Below the pieces are notes generated by a model that had not been told where the DNA came from, did not search any database, and worked only from the letters and a program-made list of their open reading frames with translations. 24,000 bases of DNA from Shouchella oshimensis (GTDB taxonomy: Bacteria > Bacillota > Bacilli > Bacillales > Bacillaceae_D). The translations under genes were made by a program, and so were the position numbers. Positions within the stretch are counted from its first letter, which is position 1, and each line of letters opens with the position of its first letter. This document shows positions 1 to 12,013 of the stretch, one piece after another. Where the stretch lies: positions 2,866,792 through 2,890,791 of the forward strand of contig NZ_KV917380.1 in assembly GCF_002019765.1 (NCBI RefSeq), given 5' to 3'.

Positions 1-1
1 A

Positions 2-871
2 GTTGGTCAAAAATTAACACACTATTTAGTCGAACAAGGACATTCCGTCACTATTTTAACGCGAAATGCAGCAAATAAGCAAAACAAAGAACACGTTTCC
101 TATGTAGAATGGCTTCAGCCAGAGGCCACTCCTGCTGAGCATTTAGAAGGAACAGACGCATTTATTAATTTGGCAGGAGAATCAATCATGGGCAGGTGGA
201 CAGCATTAAAAAAAGAACGTATCCTCTCAAGCCGACTAGAAGCAACCACCGAACTCATTTCCATAATGAAACAACTGAAGAAAAAGCCCACTGTTTTAGT
301 TAATGGTTCAGCTATGGGCTACTATGGCTATTCTGATACAAAACAATTTACAGAAGAGGATGAGCCGGCGAACACACCTTTTCTTGGTGAGGTAACCCAA
401 AAGTGGGAAAATGCCGCATCCTTAGCCTCAGAATTTGGTATTCGAACAGTATATATGCGAATTGGCATTGTGTTCGATGAAGAAGGAGGCGCACTTCCGA
501 AAATGCTTCTCCCCTACAAACTTTTTGTCGGCGGGAAAGTAGGATCAGGAAAGCAATGGATGTCTTGGATTCATAGTAACGATTTAATTCGTTTATTCTT
601 ATTTGCTATTGAAAAAGAAGCGATCTCTGGTCCTTTAAATGCAACAGCCCCTCACCCGGTTCGCATGAATCAACTAAATCGAACCATTGCTCAAGTAATG
701 AATCGTCCCCATTGGCTGCCTGCACCGTCTTTTGCTTTAAAGACCACTCTTGGCGAAATGAGTACGCTTATCCTTGATGGAGCCTACATCTTTCCTCGTA
801 AAGCCATTCAACACGGTTTCACATTTCAGTACAACGAACTGGAAGTCGCACTCAAACAACTGTTAAACTAA
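2..871 (+). CDS. TIGR01777/YfhF-like NAD-dependent epimerase family protein with C-terminal DUF1731 region, 5'-truncated by the window edge
   Basis: The reading frame is open from base 2 (VGQKLTHYLVEQGHSVTILTR...), upstream of the ORF-track Met at 170. The C-terminal half (GKQWMSWIHSNDL...NATAPHPVRMNQL...RPHWLPAPSFALK..LGEMS) matches the conserved pattern of this family as I remember it. Confidence 0.85.
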   Translation, partial: VGQKLTHYLVEQGHSVTILTRNAANKQNKEHVSYVEWLQPEATPAEHLEGTDAFINLAGESIMGRWTALKKERILSSRLEATTELISIMKQLKKKPTVLVNGSAMGYYGYSDTKQFTEEDEPANTPFLGEVTQKWENAASLASEFGIRTVYMRIGIVFDEEGGALPKMLLPYKLFVGGKVGSGKQWMSWIHSNDLIRLFLFAIEKEAISGPLNATAPHPVRMNQLNRTIAQVMNRPHWLPAPSFALKTTLGEMSTLILDGAYIFPRKAIQHGFTFQYNELEVALKQLLN

Positions 872-879
872 TGACAAAA

Positions 880-911
880 CGCATGGTTTCAGTCAATCCT
901 GACACCATGCG
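880..911 (-). terminator. Hairpin between convergent genes, probable terminator of the 98-aa gene
   Basis: CGCATGGT(t)TCAG-tcaatc-CTGA(c)ACCATGCG gives about 12 bp with a 1x1 mismatch. On the minus strand it is followed by TTTTG. There is no good T-run on the plus strand. Confidence 0.5.
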
Positions 912-916
912 CTAGT

Positions 917-1213
917 TTAATGAAGCAGCACTTTCTCGAACTTTATACTTTGTTCCTCAATACCAAGCTTCTTTAAGAACTGCTCTGCTTGCCTTAACGT
1001 ATCAAGTGGATATTGAGTTTGACAAAGTTGTGTAGCTCTTCGAAGACTCTCTTGAAACTGCTTGTTTAATGCCAAGTCACGCTTTACATTATAAATTGCT
1101 TTTAAAACCTTTTCATCTCGCTCAAAGCTAACAAATCCCTCTGTTTGATTATAATATACAATAAGAGGTACGTGGGTATGGGGATGAATAATGTGTGTCT
1201 TGTATAACTGCAT
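917..1213 (-). CDS. Hypothetical 98-aa protein, no family recognised
   Basis: Intact ORF with GGAG..GAGGAG purine tract just upstream of the ATG and a hairpin after the stop. It sits downstream and co-oriented with the aimR/aimP-like pair. Confidence 0.55.
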   Translation of the reverse strand: MQLYKTHIIHPHTHVPLIVYYNQTEGFVSFERDEKVLKAIYNVKRDLALNKQFQESLRRATQLCQTQYPLDTLRQAEQFLKKLGIEEQSIKFEKVLLH

Positions 1214-1228
1214 GACTCCTCACACTCC

Positions 1229-1576
1229 GTGGACGTTTTTCTTTTATCTTATGTAACGATTGTACCACGGTTAAAACAAATGCCTAGTTCAAATAAATAT
1301 TGTTGTCCTCGCACTACTCCACTTTACCCCTTTACAATTAAAATGATTCCTACTTTTCATTCTTCTTGCTACACTGTAGTCATACGTACGATCATGCTTT
1401 TACTGCTTGCACTTGGACCAACCCTCACTATGCTTTCTGTAACAATTGAGCTAGAGTGGCTTGCACGTACCGTCAGAGTAATCGGGGGAATTCTGTTTAT
1501 GAACACCATCATTTTTTATCGAGAAATAAGAGCGTCCCTCCACAAAACTCTAGCAAAACGAAAAAAGACTCTCTGA
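1229..1576 (+). CDS. Doubtful ORF; if real, probably only the C-terminal ~60-77 aa forms a small 2-TM protein with a basic tail
   Basis: Two hydrophobic segments followed by REIRASLHKTLAKRKKTL. No recognisable SD precedes any candidate start (1229, 1343, 1394). The ORF ends inside the 1558-1585 hairpin. Confidence 0.25.
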   Translation: MDVFLLSYVTIVPRLKQMPSSNKYCCPRTTPLYPFTIKMIPTFHSSCYTVVIRTIMLLLLALGPTLTMLSVTIELEWLARTVRVIGGILFMNTIIFYREIRASLHKTLAKRKKTL

Positions 1577-1585
1577 GGAGTCTTT
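1558..1585 (-). terminator. Rho-independent terminator downstream of the aimP-like ORF
   Basis: AAAGACTC-n6-GAGTCTTT is an 8-bp stem. On the minus strand the stem runs into TTTTTTCG. It lies about 60 nt after the peptide ORF stop. Confidence 0.7.
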
Positions 1586-1591
1586 ATATTA

Positions 1592-1622
1592 TATATCGAA
1601 ATGTAGTTTCTTTATCTATATA
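1592..1622. promoter_or_regulatory. Imperfect inverted repeat between the aimP-like stop and the terminator, candidate operator
   Basis: TATATCGAAA-tgtagt-TTTATCTATATA, with one mismatch and one indel between the arms. In described arbitrium systems the AimR operator lies downstream of aimP. The region is AT-rich, so a chance match is possible. Confidence 0.25.
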
Positions 1623-1645
1623 GTTAGAATGGTTTCACAGTCCTA

Positions 1646-1768
1646 TTAAGTTCCGCCGGGTTGCGTCGGTCCGCCTTTTACTTCAACTAAATCAGGTGTA
1701 GTACCCGTTGTCAGTTGAGCAAACGGCGAACTTAGTAAAAATAACATCACAACGATGATACTTATCAT
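1646..1768 (-). CDS. aimP: Secreted signalling pro-peptide, AimP/Phr-like, 40 aa from the ATG (44 aa if initiated at ATA 1780)
   Basis: Found by manual translation; too short for the ORF track. Sequence: MISIIVVMLFLLSSPFAQLTTGTTPDLVEVKGGPTQPGGT, i.e. a hydrophobic signal-like N-terminus followed by a polar Gly/Pro tail. It starts 26 nt after the stop of the AimR-like gene on the same strand and is followed by a terminator. Confidence 0.6.
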   Translation of the reverse strand: MISIIVVMLFLLSSPFAQLTTGTTPDLVEVKGGPTQPGGT

Positions 1769-1794
1769 TACCTTTTTTATACGCCAACACCTCT

Positions 1795-2895
1795 TTAAAT
1801 TATACTATCTAGCTTTGTTGTGAAGAACGTTGCAAAGTAATTATTGCCACTTTGCTTCATTTCGCCGTAACCTTCAAACACATGATGTACATTTTTTGTA
1901 CATAAACCTAAATAGAGCTTACCAAAAGGACTTAGTTGACTTTGACTTTTAAGCAACCGTAGTGCCTTATTCACCTCCCCTCGAACGTAATGTTGATGAG
2001 CAACTTCTTCTTCATCTCCACAGCTTAAACAGCGATCATGAATGACATTGTTAATACTCAACACAAATGCTATATCTTGTTCCATCTGTTCATGTTTCTT
2101 TGAATTTGCTTTTTTATAACAAGCTTGAGCCATCTCCAAATAACGAATAGCCAAATCAACAGAATGACCTTGATAGGCATGTCCAAGTAAGTGATTCGCA
2201 CTAGCTACAATGAAATCCGAGGCTAGCGGGCTCTTAAGAATTTTATTCGCATTTTGTATTGCATCTTGAATATCCATGCGGTTATATAAACTATCATAAG
2301 CTCGTTGTAAATCATATTTAAGTAACAACGAATCTTTTAAAAACCCTTCTCGCAATACATGTACTTTTCGATCTGTTCTCGCAAGAAAATTGTTCATATC
2401 GTAAAAATTATGTTTGAATGTTAAAGTAGATTCAATTAACTCCAGCTTTAACAGCGCTTCTGGTATGGTCACTTTTCCAAATAAGCTTCGGCATCTCTCC
2501 CATGCCATTTCTGGAGTCAGTAAACCTTTATCCCGCTCAAACCGGTATATGTCTATCCATTCCTTTACTTCGCCTTTATGGTCTTGATGAACAGATAACA
2601 AATCATCAAGCAAATCTCTCCTGTTAAAATTCGAAGCATATTCGAGGGAACTTAAAATACCAATTGGCTTCGTTAACGTCCGACAGTAATCATCCATTAC
2701 ATCTAAGTAATCTTCTTCTTCAATATAGCGAATAATAGCAAAGGAATTAGAAAACTGCAGATCTTTCTGACCTTTTTTATCCACAAACATAGAAATGAGC
2801 GGCTTCGAAATTCCTGTTGCTTTTGAGATGTCTACTTGCTTATTCCCTTCTATACTTAGATAATCGCTAACAAGTTGATATAGATAATTAGACAA
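1795..2895 (-). CDS. aimR: AimR-family (RRNPP-type) HTH + TPR-like peptide-sensing transcription regulator
   Basis: N-terminal HTH (VDISKATGISKPLISMFV) followed by about 300 aa of helical repeat. The blocks DDYCRTLTKPIGILSSLEYA, FVLSINNV and EVAHQHYVRGE resemble phi3T/SPbeta AimR blocks (DYCLNL....SALEYA, CFLNNV, ELAMHYYLKG) as I recall them. Start re-set to TTG 2895, 8 nt after GAGGGG; the ORF-track GTG at 2916 has no SD. Confidence 0.75.
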   Translation of the reverse strand: MSNYLYQLVSDYLSIEGNKQVDISKATGISKPLISMFVDKKGQKDLQFSNSFAIIRYIEEEDYLDVMDDYCRTLTKPIGILSSLEYASNFNRRDLLDDLLSVHQDHKGEVKEWIDIYRFERDKGLLTPEMAWERCRSLFGKVTIPEALLKLELIESTLTFKHNFYDMNNFLARTDRKVHVLREGFLKDSLLLKYDLQRAYDSLYNRMDIQDAIQNANKILKSPLASDFIVASANHLLGHAYQGHSVDLAIRYLEMAQACYKKANSKKHEQMEQDIAFVLSINNVIHDRCLSCGDEEEVAHQHYVRGEVNKALRLLKSQSQLSPFGKLYLGLCTKNVHHVFEGYGEMKQSGNNYFATFFTTKLDSII

Positions 2896-3111
2896 GACAG
2901 ACGCCCCTCTCTTCACTACGGTGACGTAGGATGTGATTAATGTTTATTATATAGCAACAATAAAAATATTGCTGTCGAAAAATAAAAGAATTTCTACTTT
3001 TTTAGCGTTTTTCTCTAGCCTCTTCTTAAAAGGAACCAGTTTCCTTATGATGACCTATCCTTCTCTAATTAGCGATAATGAATAAAAGCCTCTCTAACTT
3101 ACGGTCATACA

Positions 3112-3190
3112 AATAAACCCTTAATGGTGCTACACCCCAAATGCTAGCTTGGCACTCTAACTTTTTAGGGGCAATACCAATAAGGGTTCT
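3112..3190 (-). terminator. Long multi-tier hairpin immediately after the SHOCT gene
   Basis: On the minus strand, the outer arms AACCCTTATTGG / CCATTAAGGGTT match 11 of 12. Inner pairings are CCCC(t)AAA / TTTGGGG and TGC/GCA around a GCTAGC centre. It is followed by TTTATTTG. Confidence 0.5.
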
Positions 3191-3192
3191 TT

Positions 3193-3963
3193 TTAACGTA
3201 AAAGCTCAAGTTTCTTTTTATGAAATTCTTCCTCTGTAATGATTCCATCGTCAAGTAATTCTTTAAATTTTTTAATTTCATCTGCTACTGAAAAAGCTGT
3301 TTCAGTAAGGGGCTTTTGATTATTCTCCCGATCACAAATAACCTGAAACGTCGATACACATTCTTGAGCTTGTTCAAATAAAGACCTATACACCATTTCA
3401 TCTCTTTTTGACTTAGCATTTTTCAAAAAATGTATGTAAACGACTGGATCATTTATATCATTCATCGTTACTTTAATTTGTAAACTATTACACACACCCC
3501 GGGTTCTACGCTTGCCAGTTAAACCTCCAGCCATTGTTCCGGTATGACTAAAATACCCTCCATTAATAGGTGCTCTCCCTTGGCCACCGCTTGCAATCGA
3601 TTCGCCATCATCCAGTAATTCAAAGTCGAGTATGTCCTCGTATCGATAAACGATTGAACGATTTCTTCTTCCAAGTATTTCTGACAATACCAACCATTTT
3701 TTTTGATGATCATCAAATTCTACTAGTGTTCCAATTTTCTTTGTCGCCTTAAAATGATCCAGTTCTGTTGAATTATTGCTAGTTTTCGCTATAGCTTCTC
3801 TGATTTCATCGGCAGTCGCTTTTGCAATAAATTTCTTTAAACTAGAACCAGCCTTTTTATAACAAGTAGGACAAACCCATTCTTTGTTAGCAATTCTATA
3901 ACGATGTAACCCTGCTTCACCATCGCAGACCGCACATATTGCTTTTAGATCAAAAAAACCCAT
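3193..3963 (-). CDS. Zinc-ribbon (DUF4428-like) protein with C-terminal SHOCT domain
   Basis: N-terminal CxxC...CxxC (CAVCDGE...CPTCYKK). The C-terminal SVADEIKKFKELLDDGIITEEEFHKKKLELL is a typical SHOCT motif. SD GGAAGGGTG precedes the ATG. Confidence 0.8.
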   Translation of the reverse strand: MGFFDLKAICAVCDGEAGLHRYRIANKEWVCPTCYKKAGSSLKKFIAKATADEIREAIAKTSNNSTELDHFKATKKIGTLVEFDDHQKKWLVLSEILGRRNRSIVYRYEDILDFELLDDGESIASGGQGRAPINGGYFSHTGTMAGGLTGKRRTRGVCNSLQIKVTMNDINDPVVYIHFLKNAKSKRDEMVYRSLFEQAQECVSTFQVICDRENNQKPLTETAFSVADEIKKFKELLDDGIITEEEFHKKKLELLR

Positions 3964-4063
3964 CCCATATCACCCTTCCGTTTACACTACACTGATATTA
4001 TATATAAGATGAATTAGACAATACAATAGAAATAGGTAAATTTATCTAGTATAAGAATGAATA

Positions 4064-4103
4064 AGCATATTGACTCCTTAGTGCACTAAGGAGTCAATAT
4101 GCT
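4064..4103. repeat. Perfect 40-nt palindrome, probable terminator or insulator hairpin
   Basis: AGCATATTGACTCCTTAGTG|CACTAAGGAGTCAATATGCT is a perfect 20+20 palindrome centred on GTGCAC. Its edge overlaps the TAG stop of the 429-aa gene. There is no clean U-run on either strand. Confidence 0.6.
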
Positions 4104-5391
4104 AGGCGTTAATCCAAGATGTCCATGTTCCACCAGTCTTTCTACGTTTTCTTAATCCAATGGAAGATTGTACAAATGGTGTAGCTATTTGCAAAGCATC
4201 ATTATTTAACTGATAGTGATCAATCATCCAGGCTGTTTGTCCGGCAGGAACATTCTTAGCGCCAGTTTGTCTGATCCAGTAGCGACCGTTCTCGCTTATT
4301 GCATTTGCATCTGTTAAAGCTTTGGATTGACTGTGGAATGTGCCTAGTGTCCCTTTTAAAGATGAAATCGTACCATCTGGTTGGACTCTAAAAACTGTTC
4401 GATCATTTTGATAATCGTACAAAGACAGAAATTCTTCTCGTAAATTCAGTTTCACTTTGCGGTTGTTCCCCTCCCACACTTCAATTCCTTGGGTTTTATA
4501 ACCCTCCACTCCTCGAAGTTGTATGAAGCCCCTGTTGTACTCATCAATTCGCTGTACCATAGACTCTACTTCTTGAAGGCGTTTAGAGATCCTGCCAACG
4601 TCAGATCCCAACGAGTGAAGATCTTGAGCCGAAACACCGTTCATTGGTTTTTGAATGTAAAAGAAATCAGGTACTTTTCTTTCCGTCATGCCATTATTAT
4701 CGATTGACCGATTAACCATGGCACCTCTCACTATGGTTTGAGCGCTTCCACCGCCATCCAGTGTAAAAGCAAAAGCAACCTTCTCCTGCAACATAATTTC
4801 TGCTGACTCATGGGAAGTGAAGCCCCTATCAAAATTCGTACGACCATCTACAGTCAAAATGACAATATCTCCAGTAGTCTTTTGACCAAAAATTTGTGCG
4901 GGCTGAGGATTTTGATTATGCTCATAGTCATCATAAACAGTCTGGGGAAGTTTAGCACCATTTTCTATTAAAGGGATAAACCCAGTAACTGCATTCGTAT
5001 AGCCCTCGTTCAAAATTGTGGTTGCTGTAGTATGAGGTCGAAATACTTTAAATAGATTGTTATCATTAAACGCAAGGATGTATCTAGCTTTATCTGTTCT
5101 TCTATCGGATAGAATCCTTCGATTAACAATATTGACTCCCGATAAAGTCATTTGAGTAGGGTGAAAAATACCTGCATTTAATGTAACTGTATTTGAGTTA
5201 CGTTGTGCAAATGACCTTGCAGTTTCACCTGTTTGTGCGTTATTAGCTAACCCATGCTTGAGAGTGACCCCTTCTGAAACTTCGATTGTAGTTATATAAT
5301 AAGTAGTACCGTTCTTTCTTCCTTCTCTAGTTGTAACACCACTATAAAAAGCTGAATTTTCAAGCTTGTTTTTACTGTTACTATCCTGCAT
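4102..5391 (-). CDS. Phage tail-fibre/receptor-binding-like protein: phosphodiester glycosidase (NAGPA/DUF2233-type) domain, coiled-coil and pyocin-knob-like C-terminus
   Basis: FAFTLDGGGSAQTIV carries the NAGPA hallmark DGGGS. No signal peptide. Coiled segment DVGRISKRLQEVESMVQRIDE. The C-terminus (ENGRYWIR...NVPAGQTAWMIDHY...LRKRRKTGGTWTSWINA) fits the knob-domain pattern G.Y...P..G.....RR...G.W..W. SD AAGGAGA lies 9 nt before the ATG. Confidence 0.8.
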   Translation of the reverse strand: MQDSNSKNKLENSAFYSGVTTREGRKNGTTYYITTIEVSEGVTLKHGLANNAQTGETARSFAQRNSNTVTLNAGIFHPTQMTLSGVNIVNRRILSDRRTDKARYILAFNDNNLFKVFRPHTTATTILNEGYTNAVTGFIPLIENGAKLPQTVYDDYEHNQNPQPAQIFGQKTTGDIVILTVDGRTNFDRGFTSHESAEIMLQEKVAFAFTLDGGGSAQTIVRGAMVNRSIDNNGMTERKVPDFFYIQKPMNGVSAQDLHSLGSDVGRISKRLQEVESMVQRIDEYNRGFIQLRGVEGYKTQGIEVWEGNNRKVKLNLREEFLSLYDYQNDRTVFRVQPDGTISSLKGTLGTFHSQSKALTDANAISENGRYWIRQTGAKNVPAGQTAWMIDHYQLNNDALQIATPFVQSSIGLRKRRKTGGTWTSWINA

Positions 5392-5814
5392 AGGTTTCCA
5401 TCTCCTTTTTACATTGTTTCACTATACATAGAGAAATAAAGCAACAATAATCAAAGGTCGTTCATCATTTTTCTTAGTTTATAAGGTTTTACCTATTTAT
5501 CTTGGTAGCTTCCATCTAATTTTGTATAGTTGTTCAATTAGGTTACATACATAAAAAGAGAACCACCTAAAAGGAAGTCCTCTTTATTGCTTTAGTATTG
5601 GAGAATCCCTTTGAAAAAGAAGTCTGCTTTCTTTTTGTTGTTGGGACAAAATCCAATTAGCACACTGTTATTTTAGTACTATTTAAACTATACGTCCTCG
5701 CAGTTGTTAACGTTCTTTCAAACCCGCATCAATTCTTGTGTGAAAAAATTCTTAGTTTTAGCACTCCTTATACGAGGTATGGATGGATATAACTTATTTT
5801 TAGGAGGATTAAAA

Positions 5815-6000
5815 ATGTTCGCTAATAAGTGTTTTAGGAATGCCCTAGCAGTAGGTTTTGCAGTAGCCATTTTTTTAATGATTGTCTCAAGACTTAATAC
5901 ACAATCAGTCCTCGGAATTATAGTCATTTCAACAGTCGTTTATTTCATTTGTTATGTTACATCACGTGAAAAAAACCGTACTGTTTTTAATAAAGAGTAG
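5815..6000 (+). CDS. Small 61-aa two-TM membrane protein with basic C-terminal tail
   Basis: Start re-set to ATG 5815, 7 nt after AGGAGG; the ORF-track start at 5704 has no SD. Two hydrophobic helices, then SREKNRTVFNKE. A hairpin (GTTAAGGG...CCCTTAAC) follows the stop. Confidence 0.65.
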   Translation: MFANKCFRNALAVGFAVAIFLMIVSRLNTQSVLGIIVISTVVYFICYVTSREKNRTVFNKE

Positions 6001-6250
6001 CGTTAAGGGAGGGGTTTAACCTACTCCCCTTAACTGCTTATTCTAATATTTTAACGTCCTTAAGTGTACGAATGAATAATCATTTATTTGAGGTTATCTT
6101 TTACCTCTACATACTGCTTTCTCATTCATTTCGGTGACTATTCAATCGTAGAGAACTGGTTCATTCATTTAGTTATTGCAGCTGGATTAACCGTTGATCT
6201 ATGTGCTTTTCCTTTACTGTTTAAAAAAAGAAAAACATAGGAGGTACGCC

Positions 6251-6451
6251 ATGTATCGATTTAACAAATGGATTGACTCTTTTCTATTAGCTCTCGTGTG
6301 CGGTAGTGTTTACTTAACATTGAGCATAATTCACGATGATCAGGTTAAATGGCTAAATGCTTTAATAATTGCCACCTCTCTATTTCTTACATGGGCATTA
6401 GTCTTTCCTCGCCTTCGCGAAACAAGAAGTAAAACCAATACCAAAAAATAA
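6251..6451 (+). CDS. Small 66-aa two-TM membrane protein with basic C-terminal tail
   Basis: Start re-set to ATG 6251, 6 nt after AGGAGG. Two hydrophobic helices, then PRLRETRSKTNTKK. Same architecture as the 5815-6000 product. Confidence 0.65.
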   Translation: MYRFNKWIDSFLLALVCGSVYLTLSIIHDDQVKWLNALIIATSLFLTWALVFPRLRETRSKTNTKK

Positions 6452-6570
6452 GAGTAGCTCTAAGATGGGGACAATGACTAGAAATTCTTGTTTAGCAAAA
6501 TCCTACCTTATAAAGATCTTCACGGGAAAACTCATTGTGGTTAAAATGTGGTCAATCGTTATTAGAATAG

Positions 6571-6596
6571 AGAAAAAACCCTGTATTTACAGGGTT
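6571..6596 (-). terminator. Rho-independent terminator of rlmD, overlapping its stop codon
   Basis: Minus strand reads AACCCTGT-aaat-ACAGGGTT followed by TTTTCTC, giving an effective T6 run. Confidence 0.8.
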
Positions 6597-7969
6597 AGCT
6601 CGGTTACACTTTCAACTTGTGCGGTCCATGGGAACATGTCGACAGGTTGAATGTTTTTGATTTTATAGCCTTTTTTCATCAGTTGTTCAATGTCTTTTGC
6701 AAGAGTGGATGGGTTGCACGAGACGTAAACCACTCGTTTGGGTCTTGCTTTTACAATGGATTGAAGAAGCTTCCCATCACATCCGCTTCGAGGGGGATCA
6801 ACAATCACAACATCGGGTTTATAGCCTTCTTTTAGCCAGAGTGGCATCCATTTTTCGGCTGTTCCTACTTCATAAGTCGCATGGATTCCGTGTTGCTTAG
6901 CATTCTTTCGTGCGTCAGCAATTGCTTCTTTCGTCGTGTCCATTCCTCGTAACTCTTTTGCATTCTTACCTACCCACTGTCCAATGGTGCCAACACCACA
7001 GTATGCATCAATTAGATTTTCTTTTCCTGTGAGTTTCGCTGCTTTTTTTGCTTCATTATAGAGCTTCACCGTTTGGGTAGGATTAAGCTGAAAAAATGCT
7101 CGTGCAGATAAATCAAAAGCAAACTCACCTAATCGTTCGTTAATCGTTTCTTCTCCATCTAAATGAAGAGTGTCTTCACCAAAGATAAGTGAAGTTCGCT
7201 CGTGATTTATGTTCTGCATAAAAGATGTGACTTGAGGTAGCTTCATTCGAACTTGCTCAATGAGTAATTCTTTTTTTGACAGCTCTTTTGTTCGTGTTAC
7301 AAGTACTAGTTGCACTTGCCCTGTTTCGAATCCAACTCGCGTAACGATGGTTCGTACTTGTCCATTATGTTTTTTCTCATTATAAATCGGAATTGATAAG
7401 TCTTGTAAAATAGATTTTACTACTTGTGTTACGGCATTAAGCTCTTTATGCTGAACAAGACATTCCGATAAGTCAATGAGTTCGTGTGTCCCTTCTTTAT
7501 ACAAACCTGCCGCAACTTTTCCATTGGTCTTTCTCGTTTGTAATTGGCTTTTGTTACGGTAAAACCATGGATTGTCCATTCCAATCGTATCGTTTAACGG
7601 GAGTTTTTCTTCGCTTAACTTCGTATAGCGATAGAATGCTTGTGCCACAATGTCTTTTTTTCCACGCAACGTTGCGGTGTAATCCATATGCTGAAGCTGA
7701 CATCCACCGCATTCATTATAAATTGGACACGGAGGATCTTGACGTTCTTGTGAAACCTTTCGTAACTTCCGAACCTTTGCTTCAGTAAACCGTTGGCTTG
7801 CTTTCGTTACTTCAACAACGACTTCTTCTCCTGGTAATGCGCCTTTAACGAATACGACTTTCTTCTTAAAATATCCTACACCTTCACCATTAATACCTAA
7901 ACGTTTAATTGTCAGTGGGAATCGTTGACCTTTTGTTAGTTGAATACTGCTTTGTACCTTGTCATTCAT
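6587..7969 (-). CDS. rlmD: 23S rRNA (uracil-C5)-methyltransferase, RlmD/RlmCD (TrmA) family, with TRAM domain and 4Fe-4S cluster
   Basis: N-terminal TRAM-like segment ([26 protein letters not shown]). Cluster cysteines [17 protein letters not shown]-binding [11 protein letters not shown]-terminal [14 protein letters not shown]. Confidence 0.9.
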
Positions 7970-10666: not shown

Positions 10667-12013
10667 TTGGACATACAACAGGGACTTAGCCTTATCGCTG
10701 TGGCGATATTAATTGGATTAACCGCATTTTTTGTGGCATCAGAATTTGCAATCGTAAAAATAAGAAGTACGCAGCTTGAACCGCATTTAGAAGCTGGAAA
10801 GAGATCAGCGAAGTACGCCAAAAGGGTAACGACGCATTTAGATGAATATTTATCCGCTTGCCAACTCGGGATTACGATTACCGCCCTAGGAATTGGACGT
10901 TTAGCTGAACCAACGTTCGAGCAAATGCTCCATCCATTCTTTGAAGGGGTCGTACCGCCTGCAATGGTAACAACACTTGCTGTCGTTGTTTCATTTAGCT
11001 TTGCAACGTTCCTACACGTTGTTATCGGTGAACTTGCACCTAAGACGATTGCAATCCAACGAGCAGAACAAGTCACTCTTTTAATTGCCCGTCCACTCGT
11101 CTGGTTCTATCGCTTACTCTATCCTTTTATCTGGGTTTTAAACGGATCTGCTCGGATCTTAATACGCCTTTTAGGCTTTAAACCAATGTCAGAGCATGAA
11201 GTAACCCATTCCGAAGAAGAGCTGCGCCTAATTATTTCTGATAGTTACAAAGGTGGGGAAATTAATCAGTCTGAGTTTAAGTATGTTAGCAAAATCTTTG
11301 ACTTTGATAACAGGTTGGCCAAAGAAATTATGGTTCCACGAACTGAAATTTCTGCCGTCTCAATAGAAGATAGTTTAGACGACAATTTAGCCATTATGCG
11401 TGAAGAGAAATTTACACGCTATCCAGTAGTAAACGGTGATAAAGACAACATTTTGGGCATTGTTAACGTTCGTGAAGTGCTAACAGATATTGTCTCCCCA
11501 GCCATTACTGAAGAAATAAAATTGGAAAATTATATTCGCCCCGTCATTAACGTAATTGAATCGATTCCAGTCAACGACCTTCTTGTAGAAATGCAAAAGA
11601 AACAGACGCATATGGCGATTCTTTTTGATGAGTACGGTGGCACTGCTGGATTGATAACGGCTGAAGATATTATTGAAGAAATTGTTGGCGAAATTAGAGA
11701 CGAATTCGATGTGGAAGAAGACCCTCTTATTCGTACCATTAATGACGATCATTATCTTTTAGATGGTAAGACACTAATCTCTGATGTTAATAAATTGCTT
11801 CATGTTGAACTAAACGAAGATGAAGTCGATACAATTGGTGGTTGGGTACTTACAGAAAAGTACGATATTGAAGTCGGTGAAACCATGATCTTTAACGACT
11901 ATGCGTTTACAGTAAAAGCCTTTGATGGTCACCAAATTAAATTAGTAGAAGTATTGAAGCGATCCGATGAACAAGACATTGAGGATCACTTTCAAGCTTA
12001 TGGTACTTCTTAA
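10667..12013 (+). CDS. CNNM/CorC-HlyC family transporter (DUF21 TM domain, CBS pair, CorC_HlyC domain), a family implicated in Mg2+ efflux
   Basis: LTAFFVASEFAIVKIR, DEYLSACQLGITITALG, ELAPKTIAIQRAE, a CBS region (KEIMVPRTEI..., RYPVV) and a C-terminal transporter-associated domain. Start re-set to TTG 10667 (MDIQQG...), 5 nt after GAGGGG; the ORF-track GTG at 10640 lies inside an SD-like AGGAGGTG. Confidence 0.9.
   Translation: MDIQQGLSLIAVAILIGLTAFFVASEFAIVKIRSTQLEPHLEAGKRSAKYAKRVTTHLDEYLSACQLGITITALGIGRLAEPTFEQMLHPFFEGVVPPAMVTTLAVVVSFSFATFLHVVIGELAPKTIAIQRAEQVTLLIARPLVWFYRLLYPFIWVLNGSARILIRLLGFKPMSEHEVTHSEEELRLIISDSYKGGEINQSEFKYVSKIFDFDNRLAKEIMVPRTEISAVSIEDSLDDNLAIMREEKFTRYPVVNGDKDNILGIVNVREVLTDIVSPAITEEIKLENYIRPVINVIESIPVNDLLVEMQKKQTHMAILFDEYGGTAGLITAEDIIEEIVGEIRDEFDVEEDPLIRTINDDHYLLDGKTLISDVNKLLHVELNEDEVDTIGGWVLTEKYDIEVGETMIFNDYAFTVKAFDGHQIKLVEVLKRSDEQDIEDHFQAYGTS

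Follow-up and report, generated by a model that had tools for sequence, protein, structure and literature searches.

The chromosome of Shouchella oshimensis carries, outside any recognisable prophage, a phage-type arbitrium gene pair that has persisted through the divergence of two clades of the genus. The stretch of DNA analysed here, called the window throughout, comprises 24,000 nucleotides (nt) of contig NZ_KV917380.1 (positions 2,866,792 to 2,890,791); it includes an islet of about 5.3 kb (≈1300–6560) between two core genes, with aimR, which encodes a 366-residue peptide receptor (1795–2895, minus strand), and the pro-peptide gene aimP. The locus is probably the surviving aimR–aimP core of an ancient prophage or integrative element that became fixed in the S. 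lehensis/S. miscanthi lineage, with aimR under purifying selection. Phage-derived neighbours, a NAGPA gene (phrog_14029) and a DUF4428–SHOCT gene (phrog_888), remain beside the pair; of the lysogeny module and of aimX nothing is left. The careful retention of the pair across two species-level lineages suggests that the host now uses it.

The islet receptor is a full-length AimR

A preliminary description, made from the sequence alone, had read the 366-residue product as a helix–turn–helix (HTH) at the N-terminus followed by a helical-repeat body and had placed it in the AimR family, and the Pfam, NCBIfam and AlphaFold2/Foldseek results agree. Translation starts at TTG 2895, which is preceded at an 8-nt spacing by a good Shine–Dalgarno sequence (AGAGGGG) and aligns with the “MSE..” N-termini of homologues; the frame is also open from GTG 2916, which would give 373 residues. 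The protein matches the Pfam AimR profile PF22871 over positions 4–307 of 309 (E = 3.8e-21, 76 bits against a cutoff of 26.7), the NCBIfam equivalog NF038310 lysogeny_AimR (140.8 bits, cutoff 70), and phrog_1728 in the PHROG scan, and “AimR family lysis-lysogeny pheromone receptor” is the RefSeq name of identical or nearly identical proteins, among them those of S. lehensis G1 and S. miscanthi.

Used alone as a phmmer query, the islet protein finds no match among the Protein Data Bank (PDB) sequences, so its link to the solved AimRs comes only from a 54-sequence profile and from the fold search. The profile matches all solved AimRs over their full length, with E-values of 1e-53 to 1e-58. The AlphaFold2 model, built on the same 54-sequence alignment, is all-helical, with 22 helices, a pLDDT (predicted local distance difference test) of 96 and a pTM (predicted template modelling score) of 0.92. 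In the Foldseek search of the PDB with this model, the best 16 matches are all AimRs (SPbeta, phi3T, Katmira33 and ATCC13952), at template modelling (TM) scores of 0.67–0.84. The other peptide-sensing families proposed for comparison in the preliminary description score far lower: Rap 0.41, NprR 0.44 and PlcR 0.25. With profile, fold and annotation in agreement, membership of the AimR family, and not of Rap, NprR, PlcR or PrgX, is secure despite an overall identity to SPbeta AimR of 16%.

Of the three motif blocks that had been put forward as shared with SPbeta/phi3T AimR, one stands: KDYCLNL...SALEYA of SPbeta is the aligned counterpart of DDYCRTL...SSLEYA. The remaining two are not aligned with their supposed partners, SINNV being offset from FLNNV by 3–4 columns in the SPbeta alignment and HQHYVRGE paired with HCFINFNE instead of MHYYLKGR.

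The seven closest relatives share 95 invariant positions, and the islet protein keeps 82 of them, the replacements being mostly conservative. Mapping the residues that anchor the peptide in SPbeta AimR through the 16%-identity alignment suggests that E300, the anchor of the peptide N-terminus, and F276 are retained (as E297 and F277), while N202 is replaced by tyrosine, R228 by phenylalanine (F/Y at this pocket position), N239 by histidine and D360 by asparagine, the last being Asn or Gln in the seven closest relatives. The mapped pocket positions Y204, H239, E296, E297, N351, F277 and F354 are the same in the islet and in the phage-type Shouchella AimRs, so the pocket substitutions are traits of this sub-family. 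Taken together, the islet encodes a full-length AimR with an intact HTH, an intact tetratricopeptide repeat (TPR) body and the family-conserved residues.

Upstream of the gene, sequence comparison delineates a putative promoter region (2943–2986, minus strand) composed of a −35-like TTCGACA, an inverted repeat CAGCAATA-TTTT-TATTGTTG and a TATAAT −10 element. The motif TTTCGACA...TATAAT is common to the islet and its phage relatives. The inverted repeat, located between the −35-like and −10 elements, is absent from the aimR promoters of the phage relatives and is invariant in 11 of 12 islet sequences (the window and 11 fetched loci, some from the same contig), with a single substitution in locus L011. 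It is a candidate autoregulatory operator.

The islet lies at one site in two clades and aimR diverges like a core gene

With the conserved gene for a 98-residue protein next to the islet as a handle for locating islet loci, the islet can be located in at least 10 Shouchella genomes of two clades, each time at the same site. The window itself is 100% identical to LJJD01000002 (GCA_001420645.1). Clade A, which includes S. lehensis G1 (CP003923) and LT899437, is ≈99% identical to the window, and clade B, which includes S. miscanthi (CP042163), CP117834 and JCM 19047, is ≈88–89% identical in the flanks. In S. shacheensis the site is empty, the 98-residue gene lying 70 nt after the methyltransferase gene. 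The shared site in both clades and the empty site in S. shacheensis together indicate that the islet inserted once, before clades A and B split. More distant Shouchella carry other cargo at the site, an aminoglycoside phosphotransferase-like gene and a Peptidase_S66 gene; the intergenic site between the rlmCD-like methyltransferase gene and the 98-residue gene is thus an insertion hotspot in the genus (L018 5604–10001; L028/L029; L020 9930–10001).

Substitution rates at non-synonymous (dN) and synonymous (dS) sites were calculated by the Nei–Gojobori method for the window strain against clade B. For aimR, dS is 0.454 and dN/dS 0.041, from 16 non-synonymous and 76 synonymous changes, and the 17 flanking core genes span dS 0.19–0.60 and dN/dS 0.012–0.085; individual values are 0.53 and 0.043 for rlmCD, 0.55 and 0.077 for mutY, and 0.60 and 0.013 for an ABC transporter gene. 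In every finished genome aimR has 366 intact codons, and frameshifts are found only in L004, L009 and L015, low-quality drafts in which core genes are split too. Because both dS and dN/dS of aimR match those of the core flanks, the gene has been inherited vertically under strong purifying selection; in other words, aimR has co-diverged with the chromosome under constraint of core-gene strength.

The two large phage-derived genes of the islet have a different history. Between the clades, the NAGPA gene has a dS of 0.12 (dN/dS 0.22) and the DUF4428 gene a dS of 0.09 (dN/dS 0.11), values so far below those of aimR and the flanks that they indicate later recombination at the locus. The stretch 3090–5390, spanning both genes, has the appearance of a recombined segment, for which a phage may have been the donor, in an otherwise vertically inherited islet.

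The 3′ end of aimR and the 5′ end of aimP show extra conservation, with 7 differences in 221 nt (binomial P ≈ 0.0015 for a region chosen post hoc); a functional element could account for this, and so could a recombination tract. An RNA structure across the aimR stop and aimP start, prompted by the inverted repeat TCACAAC...GTTGTGA, was considered and rejected (z = 0.62).

The pro-peptide gene and the region behind it

The pro-peptide gene that the preliminary description placed directly after aimR is indeed there: the predicted open reading frame (ORF), on the minus strand from ATG 1768 to 1646, begins 26 nt after the aimR stop and encodes 40 residues (MISIIVVMLFLLSSPFAQLTTGTTPDLVEVKGGPTQPGGT) with a hydrophobic N-terminus/h-region and the C-terminus GGPTQPGGT. 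Where translation begins is less clear, and the gene may extend to an upstream ATA at 1780 (1646–1780). The strong ribosome-binding site AAAGAGGTG (1788–1796) lies 7–9 nt from ATA 1780 and is therefore spaced for the ATA, not for ATG 1768, which is preceded only by AAGG at 2 nt and would give a peptide without a basic n-region. Initiation at the ATA would yield (M/I)KKVMISII..., close to the MKKVLSFIV... of a phage relative. The gene is intact in 10 of 10 islet loci, with the ATA and the entire 5′ region identical, and this conserved ATA suggests an ancient change from ATG to ATA, followed by non-canonical initiation or weak expression.

The core GGPTQPGG is invariant, and the C-terminus following it reads GGT in clade A and GGS in clade B. 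Between the clades aimP shows 4 non-synonymous and 2 synonymous changes (dN/dS 0.67), too few to judge selection. Well-studied arbitrium peptides have C-termini of the ...RGA/GA type (PMC6458997); the islet pro-peptide (...GGPTQPGGT or ...GGS) has no such C-terminal hexapeptide, and the peptides of its phage relatives end in TGT, TGS or GA. The islet peptide is a single-copy member of what we call the arginine-free GPTQPG dialect. The missing arginine fits the receptor, since D360, which in SPbeta AimR forms a salt bridge to the peptide arginine (PMC6458997), appears to correspond to asparagine here.

Downstream of aimP come a terminator and then a convergent gene. The terminator (1564–1585), from terminator analysis and sequence a bidirectional intrinsic one, is common to aimP and the convergent 67-residue ORF. 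Between it and aimP, comparison of the clades brings out a non-coding region (1591–1623, minus strand) with a 25-nt block (ATATAGATAAAGAAACTACATTTCG) inside a 31-bp pseudo-palindrome; the block is invariant in both clades and the right arm of the surrounding pseudo-palindrome differs between them. In the phage relatives, the palindromes upstream of aimX have a centre similar to the GAAA-N5-TTTC core of this block, which may be an AimR operator, vestigial or functional. No aimX-like gene was found by tblastn with the proteins of the phage loci L001 and L005 in the window or in any islet locus, and a 47-residue ORF (1369–1512, minus strand) was rejected as aimX, being antisense to the better-supported 67-residue gene and having no properly spaced ribosome-binding site. 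The aimC and aimL genes of the extended module are likewise missing at this position: the convergent gene encodes a 67-residue protein with two transmembrane helices, not an HTH protein.

The closest relatives are phage-borne

A word-indexed search of 5.8 billion proteins returned only eight matching 90%-identity clusters at E ≤ 1e-3, and an exhaustive search returned 124 representatives. A tblastn search of 50,697 phage records found only Bacillus thuringiensis phage B83, at 23.5% identity, and scans of the GTDB genome collection (protein and alignment) found no relatives although these are present in NCBI assemblies, which we take as a limitation of the tool or the collection.

Outside the islet cluster, the closest relatives (P0002–P0008) are 41–51% identical. 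Their context could be read in L001, L005, L023 and L024 and in the IMG/VR loci L026 and L027 (P0008 has no contig record). In L001, L005, L026 and L027, aimR lies at the end of a prophage of ≈50 kb, downstream of tail, holin and amidase genes; in L023 and L024 it lies directly beside an integrase gene, a CI-like S24 repressor gene and a cro-like gene. The preliminary description had asked whether the gene always sits inside a prophage, and the answer is twofold: the islet is non-prophage in at least 10 genomes, and the 41–51% relatives are in prophages or beside integrase/repressor genes.

The four relatives read in detail all have the same order: aimP, a terminator, a palindrome of ≈50 bp and a homologous ORF of 52–57 residues with the motif FW(D/N)xE..G.I..H. 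This ORF takes the place of the AimR operator and aimX in SPbeta, and agrees with a published account in which most arbitrium systems have a small antirepressor, AimX (bioRxiv 10.1101/2025.11.23.689978). The palindromes that precede it (L001 ≈11325–11375; L005 ≈11355–11410; L023 ≈3575–3625; L024 ≈1490–1545) have outer arms that differ from phage to phage, and judged by sequence and position are likely AimR operators.

Each phage-borne pro-peptide carries two copies of a GP(T/N/S)QPG unit of 9–10 residues, arginine-free and of the “chatterer” type (L001 11089–11262; L005 11114–11284; L023 3402–3548; L024 1268–1432). The S. miscanthi phage version has GPTQPGTGT twice and that of JCM 19045/19046 SGPNQPGTGS twice, L023 has GGPTQPGPT... 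and then GGPTQPGTGS, and L024 GGPTQPGA... and then GGPSQPGA. In S. miscanthi, the islet pair and a prophage-end pair occur in one genome.

Proposed function and alternative explanations

The alternatives offered in the preliminary description, the last functional relic of a prophage or a domesticated module, do not exclude each other, and both are supported: phage-derived neighbours remain and the lysogeny module is gone, and aimR has a dN/dS of 0.04. How the pair would work can be sketched from the established mechanism of SPbeta and phi3T AimR (PMC6458997, PMC6536502). By this analogy, Sec would export pro-AimP, extracellular trimming would leave a C-terminal peptide with GPTQPGG(T/S), and Opp would bring that peptide back into the cell, where it would occupy the TPR groove of the AimR dimer; AimR would then be locked in a non-operator-binding state and so release the DNA.

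The islet pair has lost its own effector gene, so its output must lie elsewhere. It is quite possible, if on balance a little doubtful, that the pair acts in trans on the related arbitrium phages of the genus: host-made peptide would push incoming or resident GPTQPG-type phages toward lysogeny, and/or host AimR would occupy phage aimX operators or report phage activity. Biasing lysis–lysogeny decisions in this manner would amount to eavesdropping or jamming, and would be protective for the population. Experiments in Bacillus give a precedent: when incoming phages cross-talk with resident elements, AimP from the latter drives them into lysogeny, and the population is protected (PMC13220667). 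More tentatively still, we suggest that the domesticated pair was kept through speciation as a counter-measure at the level of communication, the host speaking and listening in the GPTQPG dialect and either steering phages to lysogeny or sensing their activity.

Several points weigh against this picture of a vertically inherited pair put to use against phages. The much lower dS of the NAGPA and DUF4428 genes means that the locus has recombined and that its history is not purely vertical. The candidate operator element after aimP has an arm that varies between the clades. Selection on aimP is what action in trans would explain best, but among the measurable constraints the strongest falls on aimR. 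The doubtful start of aimP (an ATA at the position optimal for the ribosome-binding site, an ATG in poor context), together with its 4 non-synonymous against 2 synonymous changes, means that the signal arm may be weak, and the GGT/GGS C-terminus departs from the ...RGA/GA type (PMC6458997).

The main alternative is a phage-independent role, in which the islet AimR would be a domesticated host quorum-sensing regulator in the manner of PlcR or NprR, with targets in the host or the islet (autoregulation, the NAGPA gene, the 67-residue membrane protein or unlinked genes). The constraint on aimR is just that of a core gene; the inverted repeat in the promoter is specific to the islet and, the L011 substitution apart, invariant in both clades; the 25-nt block after aimP is invariant, the NAGPA gene is kept intact in all islets, and the RRNPPA family includes many host regulators (PMC9765709). 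We nevertheless consider this role rather unlikely: the DUF4428 and 67-residue genes are lost in some strains, the translation signals of aimP look weakened, and the peptide still belongs to the dialect used by the phages of its genus. That the pair is non-functional prophage debris that has not yet decayed is improbable, even though the islet has no aimX, integrase or repressor gene, an ATA stands at the expected start of aimP, and some strains have truncations or deletions in neighbouring islet genes. Neutral sequence at such divergence would show a dN/dS near 1 and disruptions; aimR has a dN/dS of 0.04 over a dS of 0.45 (16 against 76 changes) and neither frameshift nor stop in finished genomes, the frameshifts of L004, L009 and L015 occurring in low-quality drafts with split core genes. 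Least probable, to the point of being very hard to sustain, is that the locus is the usual arbitrium module of a prophage still alive, or of another mobile element such as a satellite, the rest of which lies nearby or was missed. Such elements do harbour the closest relatives, in prophages or beside integrases, and the rlmCD/98-residue site is a variable hotspot. However, the 5.3-kb islet has core genes to its left and right in the window and in the 20-kb loci, which refutes the prophage version; the Pfam and PHROG scans found no integrase, replication or packaging genes in the islet, and no att repeats were evident on reading of its borders; and the identical junctions and the co-divergence with the flanks argue against mobility.

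Content and borders of the islet

On the side of the 98-residue gene, the islet carries a remnant of the 67-residue ORF with two transmembrane helices (1385–1576, plus strand), recognised by alignment with L014, L016 and L008. A 37-nt deletion at 1384/1385, unique to this strain, has removed its ribosome-binding site and first codons. In other islets the ORF (MNTKRTIMLLLL...HKTLAKRKKTL) is intact and ≈95% conserved, and might encode a small toxin- or holin-like membrane protein.

Beyond aimR lie the two phage-derived genes. The DUF4428 zinc-ribbon/SHOCT protein (3193–3963, minus strand, 256 residues; Pfam, and phrog_888 at E = 2e-67) is truncated in L008 and L011, and in L017 a short C-terminal fragment is left in which no gene is called. 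The NAGPA phosphodiester glycosidase (4102–5391, minus strand, 429 residues; Pfam PF09992, and positions 340–772 of the 1115 of phrog_14029) is intact in all islets and shares 35% identity with gp2.43 of SPO1. Its stop codon is overlapped by a perfect 40-bp palindrome (AGCATATTGACTCCTTAGTG/CACTAAGGAGTCAATATGCT) at 4064–4103, which resembles a terminator, though an unusually long and perfect one. Two small membrane-protein ORFs follow on the plus strand (5815–6451, supported by gene calls in L010), one of 61 residues at 5815–6000 and one of 66 residues at 6251–6451, the latter sharing 53% identity with an ORF that in S. miscanthi lies 2.8 kb downstream of the prophage-end aimR. Clade B islets hold ≈1.9 kb more than the window, including a gene for a 171-residue RDD-domain membrane protein (e.g., L016 4553–5068), a segment that the window either lost or never had.

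The left border is formed by the core gene for a TRAM/tRNA(U5)-methyltransferase-like protein (rlmCD-like; 6587–7969, minus strand; Pfam) and the right border, from locus comparison, by the conserved 98-residue Shouchella/Alkalicoccobacillus gene (917–1213, minus strand), which has its own promoter. The ≈95 nt upstream of the latter (1213–1310, with the promoter TAGGCA-16-TGnTACAAT) are 100% identical between clades whose coding sequences differ by ≈11%, which points to regulatory sequence under strong constraint. Between 6587 and 24000 the window holds Bacillus-type housekeeping genes (the rlmCD-like methyltransferase, a pdaA-like deacetylase, CNNM/CorC, yfkB, yfkD, cydAB, an M3 oligopeptidase and others), and at the other end the 98-residue gene is followed by an epimerase gene that crosses the window edge. 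The apparent 5′ truncation of this epimerase gene (170–871) is an edge effect only, the full 300 residues being present in L010.

As the preliminary description had it, the window is free of integrase, repressor, capsid and terminase genes in the Pfam and PHROG scans of its main ORFs, and in the islet the same scans find no replication, packaging or virion genes. It had allowed for a full prophage continuing just outside the islet; with core chromosomal genes on both sides within the window, none does. Outside the islet the only match to a phage family is one histidine-phosphatase core gene (a PHROG of unknown function), and the window contains no tRNA gene. No att-like direct repeats are evident at the islet borders by reading of the sequences, the repeat search having covered inverted repeats only. 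PADLOC gives no defence-system match for any islet protein and Rfam no RNA family in 1–7000.

Significance and comparison with known systems

Arbitrium is viewed as a communication channel owned by phages, and surveys have speculated that hosts eavesdrop on it. AimR genes outside predicted prophages are a described class that accounts for 13% of AimR hits (Felipe-Ruiz et al. 2022, PMC9765709), so although the preliminary description was right that this aimR lies outside any recognisable prophage, the location alone is less unusual than it implied. What the present locus provides is comparative evidence for a maintained copy, namely an orthologous position, an outgroup with an empty site, and core-gene-like dS and dN/dS. 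In the literature searched we found no report of orthologous position and purifying selection for non-prophage AimR loci, and no paper on AimR in Shouchella or on arbitrium domestication, although the search was limited and does not prove absence. Natural controls exist as well, since phage-borne relatives with this peptide core are found within the genus and, for S. miscanthi, in one genome with the islet; together with the comparative evidence they make bacterial exploitation of phage communication directly testable in S. lehensis G1 or S. miscanthi, whose genomes are both finished. Were the pair a domesticated counter-measure, it would be a case of defence or manipulation directed at how phages decide, not at their nucleic acid. 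While the gene family is ordinary, the case for host retention of phage communication machinery is clean and testable. To what is known, the locus adds an orthologous, dated and selectively maintained non-prophage AimR that still has its pro-peptide, an arginine-free GPTQPG dialect with double-pheromone pro-peptides in the phage versions, and an islet pair that coexists with a related prophage-end system in one genome.

In comparison with the SPbeta/phi3T-type systems (PDB 6HP3, 5ZW6, 5ZVV, 6S7I, 9F36), the islet shares the receptor family, the HTH and TPR fold (TM ≈ 0.8), an aimP directly downstream of aimR on the same strand, and the DYC...LEYA block, with the equivalents of E300 and F276 apparently kept. 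It differs in that its AimR is only 15–20% identical, that neither aimX nor a phage surrounds it, and that the pair is chromosomally fixed and vertically inherited; its peptide ends in GPTQPGGT and not in xxRGA, and the putative pocket changes D360→N and R228→F/Y accord with this. The Shouchella phage modules (P0002–P0008) are closer, with 41–51% identical AimRs, the same aimR promoter motif, the GPTQPG core and the same pocket residues. Unlike the islet, which has one pheromone copy and none of the other features, they have two copies, a terminator followed by the ≈50-bp palindrome and an aimX-like gene, and integrase/CI/Cro genes or a prophage end as their setting. Since aimX, a mobile-element context and a C-terminus of the SPbeta ...RGA type are all absent, the islet locus is not a complete arbitrium system.

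The chromosomal, non-prophage AimRs, which have been proposed as eavesdroppers, resemble it in location and in having no aimX, aimC or aimL neighbours; ≈89% of that class are without a pro-peptide gene (PMC9765709), and the islet, which keeps one, belongs to the minority of roughly 11%. Its gene order corresponds to the “RP” architecture termed generic (Kabel et al. 2025, bioRxiv 10.1101/2025.11.23.689978). The host RRNPPA regulators PlcR–PapR, NprR–NprX and Rap–Phr are, like the islet pair, chromosomal and vertically inherited, with a pro-peptide gene adjacent to that of a peptide-gated TPR regulator. Their fold and profile matches to the islet receptor are far weaker, and the islet pair is set apart from them by its origin in phage arbitrium.

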